A stretch of DNA of 64,000 nt from NCBI GenBank assembly GCA_000002445.1, contig CM000208.1, positions 3,968,001 through 4,032,000 of the forward strand. Direction: 5' to 3'. This stretch comes from Trypanosoma brucei (Eukaryota). Positions 24,001 through 27,000 of this stretch are shown here, one piece after another (positions within the stretch are counted from its first letter, which is position 1; every line of letters starts with the position of its first letter). Made by a program: the position numbers.

Positions 24001-27000
24001 CTTATTAGACCTTAAAAATAAAATTTGCTGGAAATGTCATGTGCAAAGACTAAGACAAAACGTACTGTTCTCTGAATCCTCAACGTCATCGCGACAAGTT
24101 AAAGCAAGTAAAAGTCAGTGACGGAAGATGGCTATACAATTAAGTACAGCCCGACTTCTGTTGTACATAGCCACTGTGCTCGTGCTCCAAACTGCAAGAA
24201 AAAGCGATGCTGCTAAAGAGGCCCTAAAATGGAATGAGCTCACAAAACTTTGCAAAATAGCAAATTTTTTAAGAAAAATACCAGCATATGCATTACAAAA
24301 AGCAAACGAACAAAATACAGCCTTACAAGCAGCGCTCAAAGCCAAGGTAGCGGCAGCGGCGGCGGCGGAAGCACAGACGGACGCCCACATCAGCATGGTG
24401 GCAGCAGCAACCGCAGCGGCAGCAGACAAATGCATAGAAGACGCAACTGAGCAAGCGTGGAACATCCAAGAAAAAGCGATAAAATCCGCAGCTTTAGGAG
24501 CACTTCAAGCTGGACGGATCAGCGAGCTCGTACATCTTCTAAATAGCATGTCAACTGGTGGAGGGAGCAACGGATACTGTCTAGCACAAGACGGCGACAA
24601 CGCACAGACGGACACGACAGTCGACGGAGTCGGCTGCGCGACTCTAAGCCCCGATTTAGCCGCTGCGCCACTCGCGTACAATGACGCAAAATTCACAGAC
24701 AAAGGCTTCAGTGAAGTTAAAGCCGGCACAGCTAAGCACAGCTCACCGACCAAATGCATTTTGCTACACAAAGCAGACACCGATAACCCAGCCGCAGGCG
24801 ATCTATTTCAGCGCAAGGGACCGCACCTATTAGGAGGCGGACTACTGTCAGTCACGGCGCACACAACAGCCATCGAAGCAACGATAACAGGCCTAGACAA
24901 CATAGCTACTGCAGGCAGAATCGCACAAGCCGAAACAGCCGCTCAGCACCTGTACAATGCTGTAGCAGACCTCAAAGCGGCGGTGCCGATTTCCTGCGGC
25001 TCATAGCACACCGGCGTTATAGAGGGCCTTGTAAACGATGGTTCAGTAGCAACACAACTAGCAAACATGATCAAAACAGCAAAGCCAGACCTGCGTGACG
25101 GAGAAGATGCCAAGCAGGCGGAGGCTATTCTCACGGCAATACCAGCAAAAGACAACAACAGAGGCAAAAACATTCGAGAAAAAATCCTAAAAACAAAAAT
25201 TTACATGGTAAAGAACGGTAACAGTGTAGAAACGGCAATATCCGACATAAGTTCAGCAGCTGAGAGAAGGACAGGATATCTTTTAGGACACAACAAAACA
25301 AGAATTCAGCTGGCAGAATTGTCCAAGCAGCTGACGGCTGCAAGACAAAAGAAAGAAAAAGCGGACACCCCCAAAACACAAGAAACAGACGAAACTTGCA
25401 AAAAAATGGACAGGAGCCGAGTGCAAAGAAGGCTGAAAATGGGACGGCGAAGGCGACAATGAAAAGTGCGTAAATTATCCGGATTGTACACAAAAAAGGA
25501 AGCAAATCAAGATACAAAATACCATGGCGAGTACTTCCGTTGTGACTAACGCACTATTTTGCTTTTAGGATGCAAAACTTAAGTGTTTTATCATGCTAAG
25601 GATTGTTACTCAATTTTATTAAATTTAATATATTATAACACCTTTTGATGAAAATGCGAAAACTGATGATGAATCAATTAATATGGTATTTTCTACGATA
25701 ATTTTTTATGAGCGTAATGTTGTAGGATAACCGGGTGTTAAAACTTTATTATTCTGTCTATTTTATTGATATTAATAGTTAGTGTTATGATGGTGATTGC
25801 ATAATAATAGTAGGAATAATAATAATAATAATAATAATAATAATAATAATAATAATAATAATAATAATAATAATAATAATAATAATAATAATAATAATAA
25901 TAATAATAATAATAATAATAATAATAATAATAATAATAATAATAATAATAATAATAATAATAATAATAATAATAATAATAATAATAATAATAATAATAAT
26001 AATAATAATAATAATAATAATAATAATAATAATAATAATAATAATAATAATAATAATAATAATAATAATAATAATAATAATAATAATAATAATAATAATA
26101 ATAATAATAATAATAATAATAATAATAATAATAATAATAATAATAATAATAATAATAATAATAATAATAATAATAATAATAATAATAATAATAATAATAA
26201 TAATAATAATAATAATAATAATAATAATAATAATAATAATAATAATAATAATAATAATAATAATAATAAAAATAGGAGAGTGTTGTAAGTGTGTATATAC
26301 GAAAAAGTATAATAAGAATGGAGAAGACTTAATGCATGGACACAATACACAAATTTAAAAATATGGTAAGGTGTAATCAGATCACGTAGCTGAGAACGAA
26401 CGAGTAGAAACGAGCAGTAGTATTATTTTAAAGAGACATGCAGAGGCTGGTGAATCAAACGCGGGTTCCAGCGGCGAAAGTAACAATGATGAATATGCGA
26501 AAGAATAGGAAGGCTGAGACCGTGGAGAGAACGAACGCGACGGAAGAAACAAATGTAGTTATTGCGTTTTATGCAGCGACAGCGAAAGGAAATGCATGAC
26601 TAAAGTGCAAGGGAAAATAAGAGACAAAAGAACAAGAAAGCAGTATATTAATCAGTGAATTATCTCTATGAACTGAACAGAATCGATGCCAGCACAACAT
26701 TAACTCCGTATTGGTATACTAGGTGGTCACTAAGCCATTTAAAGAATTGAGTAATTAACATAATATTTTTCGCTGATACAAATCTAACGGAGCCTATTTA
26801 TAAAGCAAAAGAAGCAAAAAGACATTTTTGTACATCAATTCATGAAGCTTAGCCGCCATCTAAGCAACCCGATTGCAGATAATTGAGAGCAGAAGCTAAA
26901 CCGAATTGCATTCAATAAAAAACAACATCACAACTTGGCCATTTTAAGGAAAAATGCAGGCTGAGAATTAACGGAAGATAGTAGGGAGTAAGGGCTGTAA

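Follow-up and report, generated by a model that had tools for sequence, protein, structure and literature searches.

The 70-bp (76-bp) repeat is a conserved element located 1-2 kb upstream of nearly every silent VSG of Trypanosoma brucei. According to PMC6237402, one to three repeats adjoin about 90% of VSGs and single units are normal in arrays; the account of Hovel-Miner et al. (PMC4858185) includes an AT-rich part of variable length between the conserved units and a repeat-to-VSG distance of ~1.5 kb. The repeats are presented as the upstream limit of VSG gene conversion (PMC10691351) and as elements that are needed to recruit archive donors after an expression-site break and that promote donor selection (PMC4858185), and the formation of mosaic VSGs is reported to proceed without need of them (PMC13233330). 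Hovel-Miner et al. 2016 (PMC4858185) expressly refrained from assigning a role to the triplet part. Long TAA runs associated with these repeats figure in two early titles, as (TAA)90 flanked by 76-bp repeats in that of Campbell, van Bree & Boothroyd 1984, and as “(TAA)n ... flanking several intrachromosomal VSG genes” in that of Aline et al. 1985. TTA.TAA runs are described as unstable, with a non-hydrogen-bonded structure (Ohshima 1996, cited in PMC4858185, PMC6237402 and PMC3467770), and the possible instability of the TAA runs has been under discussion since that report (Ohshima et al. 1996). A literature search returned no survey of TAA tract lengths in trypanosomes.

The window, that is, the whole 64-kb stretch of DNA analysed here, comes from Trypanosoma brucei brucei TREU927 and consists of a silent subtelomeric VSG array. 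Within it lie two uninterrupted TAA tracts, termed below the main tract and the second tract, together with the following features.

1619-1647, + strand: upstream core of the second locus, 0 mismatches
1649-1834, + strand: second uninterrupted tract, 186 bp
1835-1885, + strand: core and tail downstream of the second tract, matching the 51-nt consensus used at 100% identity
3939-5375, + strand: B-type VSG, beginning 2.1 kb after the second locus, with a partial C-terminal domain match
24128-25462, + strand: upstream VSG pseudogene, with an A-type N-terminal domain ORF at 24128-25006 and an ORF in another frame at 25067-25462
25626-25641, + strand: VSG 3'-flank 16-mer-like element TAATATATTATAACAC, 2 mismatches
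25801-25814, + strand: imperfect triplets ATAATAATAGTAGG bordering the main tract on its 5' side
25815-26269, + strand: uninterrupted (TAA)151 main tract, 455 bp, TAA being read on the VSG-sense strand
26270-26274, + strand: AAATA linker from the main tract to the core, where the triplet register is broken
26275-26303, + strand: conserved GT-rich 70-bp-repeat core GGAGAGTGTTGTAAGTGTGTATATACGAA, 0 mismatches, the sole core at the main locus
27773-29205, + strand: downstream VSG pseudogene, frameshifted, starting 1.5 kb after the core at 26275-26303

The twelve ORFs of at least 250 aa in the window all lie on the + strand, along which Pfam matches to VSG_B, Trypan_glycop (A-type VSG) and Trypan_glycop_C were obtained, and the ORFs that have no Pfam match are still VSG-like, showing hallmarks such as a signal peptide, a C-terminal domain rich in Cys and a hydrophobic GPI tail. 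The proteins of ORFs 52440-54035 and 55362-56897 are exactly those deposited as XP_828092.1/EAN78980.1 and XP_828093.1/EAN78981.1, respectively, each recorded as “variant surface glycoprotein (VSG), putative” of TREU927. These adjacent A-type VSGs (52440-54038 and 55362-56900) have in common a 99% identical 300-nt block (53793-54092 and 56655-56954, offset 2862 bp) covering the 3' coding end and the start of the 3' flank, as well as the variant 16-mer TGATATACTTTAACGC and an identical degenerate core (54305 and 57167); the shared block suggests partial gene conversion or partial duplication. The upstream pseudogene at 24128-25462 has its best homologues among T. brucei and T. equiperdum VSGs, to which it is 64-71% identical, and no orthologue of it was found in the homology search. 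In the downstream pseudogene, ORF 27773-28333 carries a signal peptide and ORF 28486-29205 a Cys-rich VSG C-terminal domain, whose Trypan_glycop_C match (E=0.0012) falls below the curated cut-off. No homologues of the downstream pseudogene ORF (27773-28333) and of the VSG at 3939-5375 were found at E<=1e-10 and E<=1e-40, the exact protein of the latter is absent from public collections by exact-sequence look-up, and an exact look-up of five window proteins in the contig collection for other copies gave no match. Likewise, no Pfam VSG N-terminal match at E<=0.001 was obtained for ~49064-50557, 61110-62216, 20316-21404 and 40610-42226, and for the first, second and fourth of these none appeared in a second scan at E<=1 either. 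Such missing Pfam and homology matches show how divergent archive VSGs are. The 538-aa VSG-like ORF at 40610-42226 reads through a perfectly conserved VSG 3'-flank 16-mer (42207-42222) and finishes with a long, low-complexity hydrophobic tail; the apparent loss of its normal stop codon makes it a probable pseudogene. A region of ~5.5 kb (13000-18600), situated between VSG fragments at 10958-12345 (Pfam VSG_B) and the core at 18699, contains no ORF of at least 120 aa, no VSG similarity and no 70-bp core.

An exact scan of this one reference assembly delimited the maximal pure period-3 run of the main tract at 25815-26269 (455 bp), within which 25817-26269 comprises 151 units in TAA phase, so that the original prediction of about 151 pure TAA units at 25816-26268 was right to within 1-2 bp. 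The span called by TRF is wider (25801-26274, 158 copies, 98% matches) because the few imperfect triplets ATAATAATAGTAGG precede the main tract; their likeness to the ATAATAAGAGCAG tail of the 70-bp unit is weak and at chance level. From 25815 to 26274 the sequence contains neither G nor C. The GT-rich core (GGAGAGTGTTGTGAGTGTGTATATACGAA-like) was found with 0 mismatches at 26275-26303, 1619-1647 and 1835-1863, and the element had been correctly recognised as a trypanosome 70-bp repeat with an unusually long TAA run. At both loci a TAA/TGA (T-R-R) run adjoins the core, with 151 units at the main locus and 61 at the second, and a same-strand VSG gene or pseudogene follows within about 1-2 kb, the distance from the core at 26275 to the ATG at 27773 being 1.5 kb and that from the core at 1835 to the ATG at 3939 being 2.1 kb. 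The downstream pseudogene at 27773-29205 is the gene to which the main-tract repeat “belongs”.

The main tract had also been placed inside a 70-bp repeat block with an intact core on both sides, a setting that was verified for the second tract (cores at 1619-1647 and 1835-1863) but not for the main one, which is part of a solitary unit with a single core, downstream only, at 26275-26303. This unit measures ~490 bp, in place of the ~70-77 bp of canonical units arranged in tandem. The 174 bp at 25641-25814 gave a local alignment score of 16 against the repeat consensus, a value equalled or exceeded by 320 of 500 shuffles, compared with a score of 55 for the corresponding stretch at the second locus. 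BLAST and local alignment revealed no core, not even a degenerate one, between the 16-mer-like element and the main tract. That element, at 25626-25641, is where the upstream VSG unit ends, 173 bp short of the main tract. A coding or RNA role of the main tract was considered and rejected, since the ORFs that cross it are mechanical and the whole window yields 0 Rfam matches. Three such ORFs of 163-192 aa were recorded (25772-26350 and 25785-26345 on the - strand, 25797-26288 on the + strand), those on the minus strand translating into poly-Leu and poly-Ile; they are not genes, though an automatic gene caller could list them.

Confirming the prediction of a second tract of about 61 units at 1650-1833, the exact scan revealed a pure period-3 run at 1649-1834 (186 bp, 100% matches), which makes 62 units when read in ATA phase and 61 when read in TAA phase. 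Its downstream core, at 1835-1863, displays 0 mismatches, and the two cores of this locus are 216 bp apart. Both the main and the second tract are anchored on each side by unique sequence within a few bases. Over 1.6-2.1 kb on each side, the flanks of the two long-tract loci have nothing in common but the core and a single piece of 40 nt, indicating that the tracts arose as independent events; their origin as copies of one duplication is ruled out, the flanks being unrelated.

Comparison with the remaining repeats of the window places the two tracts in context. The 64 kb contains 20 cores of the 70-bp repeat, all on the + (VSG-sense) strand. Ten were matched with up to 3 mismatches, against 0 expected, and BLAST, which is more sensitive, added ten further degenerate cores, likewise confined to the + strand, at a density of about one per VSG unit. 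The T-R-R triplet run ending just before each core was measured, and every one of the 20 cores has such a run. At 18 of them the run extends over 1-22 triplets of mixed TAA, TGA and TAG composition, with interruptions in 17 of these 18, which bears out the earlier description of typical repeats as carrying short TAA/TGA runs; the other two cores are preceded by runs of 61 and 151 units, both 100% TAA. Besides the two tracts, no pure trinucleotide run of at least 8 units occurs in the 64 kb, and a chance origin is therefore excluded. All TAA runs of at least 4 units read TAA on the + strand, where no TTA run is present. The usual arrangement in the window is a solitary unit headed by a T-R-R run, and canonical 81-bp units are present at 47002-47186 (TRF). 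In this window, tract length goes with purity: interrupted runs comprise at most 22 units, while the uninterrupted ones comprise 61 and 151. This link provides a simple rule for which VSG cassettes carry unstable DNA, a rule that is testable genome-wide.

Nearest-neighbour parameters rank the main tract as the duplex of lowest stability in the window at all scales examined. In 450-bp windows it reaches -0.82 kcal/mol per step, compared with a mean of -1.30 (SD 0.108), a deviation of ~4 SD, and thus shows the low helical stability relative to its surroundings that is expected of a DNA unwinding element. Its G/C-free run of 460 bp is the longest of the window, the next after the second tract being 37 bp. 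Folding of 150 nt of each strand as single-stranded DNA gave a minimum free energy of 0 kcal/mol, worse than all 200 shuffles, so that the stable intrastrand structure on one strand that characterises hairpin- or triplex-forming expandable repeats is lacking, and the tract is not a homopurine-homopyrimidine mirror repeat. A hairpin-based expansion mechanism is ruled out by this value on both strands, and the hairpin models developed for CAG/CGG repeats are not applicable, since neither strand folds. These stability and folding computations fit unwinding rather than hairpin chemistry, and the relevant non-B state of the main tract is predicted to be simple unwinding. The wording of the original prediction on triplet-run instability and non-B DNA is accurate as published opinion (Ohshima 1996, in PMC4858185, PMC6237402 and PMC3467770).

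Taken as a whole, the main tract is the variable triplet segment of a solitary 70-bp repeat, probably grown by slippage or unequal sister exchange and most probably tolerated as a by-product that has no dedicated function. The usual triplet segment is a short TAA run with TGA interruptions, and at both long loci these interruptions are missing. Replication slippage or unequal sister exchange most likely extended the runs to 151 and ~62 units, both processes being strongest on long pure microsatellites, whose homogeneity they maintain. The main tract contains 0 substitutions in 455 bp, compared with differences at 4.2% of positions between the members of a tandem duplicate pair in the same window, which argues for the main tract being young or continuously homogenised. 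According to published experiments, the whole element provides upstream homology through which the downstream VSG is copied into an expression site, and its expanded TAA part, predicted to form a very easily melted duplex without hairpins, would in a silent array most probably be a tolerated by-product. Functional neutrality of the expansion at this silent array pseudogene is an assumption here. Given long-read assemblies and break mapping, long tracts in silent arrays constitute natural test cases for the role of the triplet part.

A less probable alternative, to which we nevertheless give some weight, is that a real main tract was given a false length of 455 bp through cloning, sequencing or assembly, and that it is in truth substantially shorter or longer. 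The TREU927 assembly, which we take to consist of clone-based Sanger data of 2005, is a clone-based reference, and the sizing of pure low-complexity repeats is hard. Both tracts, of 186 and 455 bp, fit within a single Sanger read, as would be expected if longer tracts could not be assembled, and longer tracts may simply have gone unassembled. AAT.ATT repeats are reported to suffer deletion in E. coli, AAT24 being reduced to AAT8 (PMC3000339). The bias thus documented is one of contraction, so that a clone-based assembly is likelier to under-report than to inflate tract length and over-expansion is the less likely error. The anchoring of both sides in unique sequence within a few bases and the occurrence of the same phenomenon at two independent loci also speak against an artefact, as does the (TAA)90 tract obtained independently in 1984, as its title states.

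That the main tract is a functional fragile site or recombination hotspot, at which unwinding, fork stalling or R-loops lead to breaks and hence to archive rearrangement or donor choice, appears unlikely. The proposal draws on the lowest duplex stability in the window and on several reports, namely that (TAA)n is proposed to be physically unstable and could stall replication (PMC3467770), that breaks in expression-site 70-bp repeats were detected by locus-directed assays (summarised in PMC13233330) and that R-loops accumulate around array VSGs (PMC10691351). Against it, genome-wide break mapping by BLISS is reported to have given no clear signal of breaks inside the 70-bp repeats of BES1, the active expression site (PMC10691351), and gene conversion has no strict need of the repeats (McCulloch 1997, as described in PMC4858185). 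Transcription-driven routes fall away in an array that is transcriptionally silent, and the genes flanking the main tract are pseudogenes on both sides. Moreover, the flanks of the long tracts are ordinary VSG units, with no breakpoint scars detected at either, and the sole recent rearrangement in the window (43331-51016) ends in short interrupted runs rather than at the long tracts.

This rearrangement is a tandem duplication of a whole VSG cassette, in which 43331-47149 and 47194-51016 are 95.8% identical over 3824 aligned bp with a spacing of 3866-3867 bp (3.87 kb). Both ends lie inside 70-bp repeats, with cores at the start (43355), at the junction (47026, 47107 and 47221) and at the end (50893 and 50974), and the triplet runs of these repeats are short and interrupted (5-22 units). 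The duplicated unit is mostly 97-100% identical, with a fall to about 85-95% at 45100-46100, over the 5' (N-terminal) portion of the VSG coding sequence; one duplicate retains an intact 497-aa VSG ORF (49064-50557), and in the other only a 300-aa ORF (45788-46690) is open. Duplication ends located in 70-bp repeats fit a role of the repeats as recombination homology, and the hotspot idea for the main tract finds no support within this window. Its stronger form, in which pure TAA tracts above a length threshold would be self-propagating fragile sites driving cassette duplication, deletion and pseudogene turnover, is more improbable still; if it were true, tract length would tune the local rate of archive evolution or the frequency of VSG recruitment.

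Very low stability is the physical signature of unwinding elements, and the 460 bp of highly unstable duplex without G or C would suit a DNA-unwinding element or a boundary that excludes nucleosomes, such as a dormant replication origin or a chromatin insulator between VSG cassettes. This role is, however, highly improbable, as a long tract accompanies only 2 of the 20 VSG units in the window and so cannot mark cassette boundaries in general, neither a protein-binding motif nor any other feature of an origin is apparent, and the papers searched contained no support for an unwinding-element or boundary role.

The repeat unit at the main locus agrees with the T. brucei 70-bp (76-bp) repeats (Liu 1983; Campbell 1984; Hovel-Miner 2016, PMC4858185) in its GT-rich core with a preceding T-R-R run, in its orientation with respect to the VSG, in its position 1.5 kb upstream and in the arrangement of one to three units typical of silent arrays. 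It differs from them in size, the 455 bp of pure TAA giving a unit of ~490 bp and not 75-77 bp, and in being a single unit and not a tandem block. The (TAA)n elements named in the 1984 and 1985 titles are the closest relatives, since they too are long pure TAA runs in 70-bp-repeat sequence upstream of chromosome-internal VSGs. As defined by these titles, the (TAA)n variant is fully represented at 1649-1834, where ~62 units between two cores reproduce the arrangement given in the 1984 title, and is represented with a one-sided flank at 25815-26269, where the main tract, with 151 units, is ~1.7 times the length of (TAA)90 and has a core on one side only. Long TAA runs in 70-bp repeats are an already known kind of element, on record since 1984-85, because the two titles describe the feature and the tract sits in the published TREU927 reference genome; the main tract adds little to existing knowledge, and its description as extreme in the original prediction was overstated.

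The other comparisons concern the behaviour of the repeat motif. The TTA.TAA runs for which a non-hydrogen-bonded structure was reported in supercoiled plasmids (Ohshima et al. 1996) consist of the same motif, and the present computations agree with unwinding; the tracts in those plasmids, like the AAT.ATT repeats in E. coli (PMC3000339), were short, and formation of the structure in trypanosome chromatin at a silent locus is hypothetical. With the disease-type repeats CAG.CTG, CGG.CCG and GAA.TTC, the main tract has in common a long pure tract and the association of purity with long and of interruptions with short runs. In contrast to these repeats, it has no hairpin potential (MFE 0) and no homopurine-homopyrimidine mirror symmetry, and the usual hairpin and triplex models of expansion are therefore not applicable to it.
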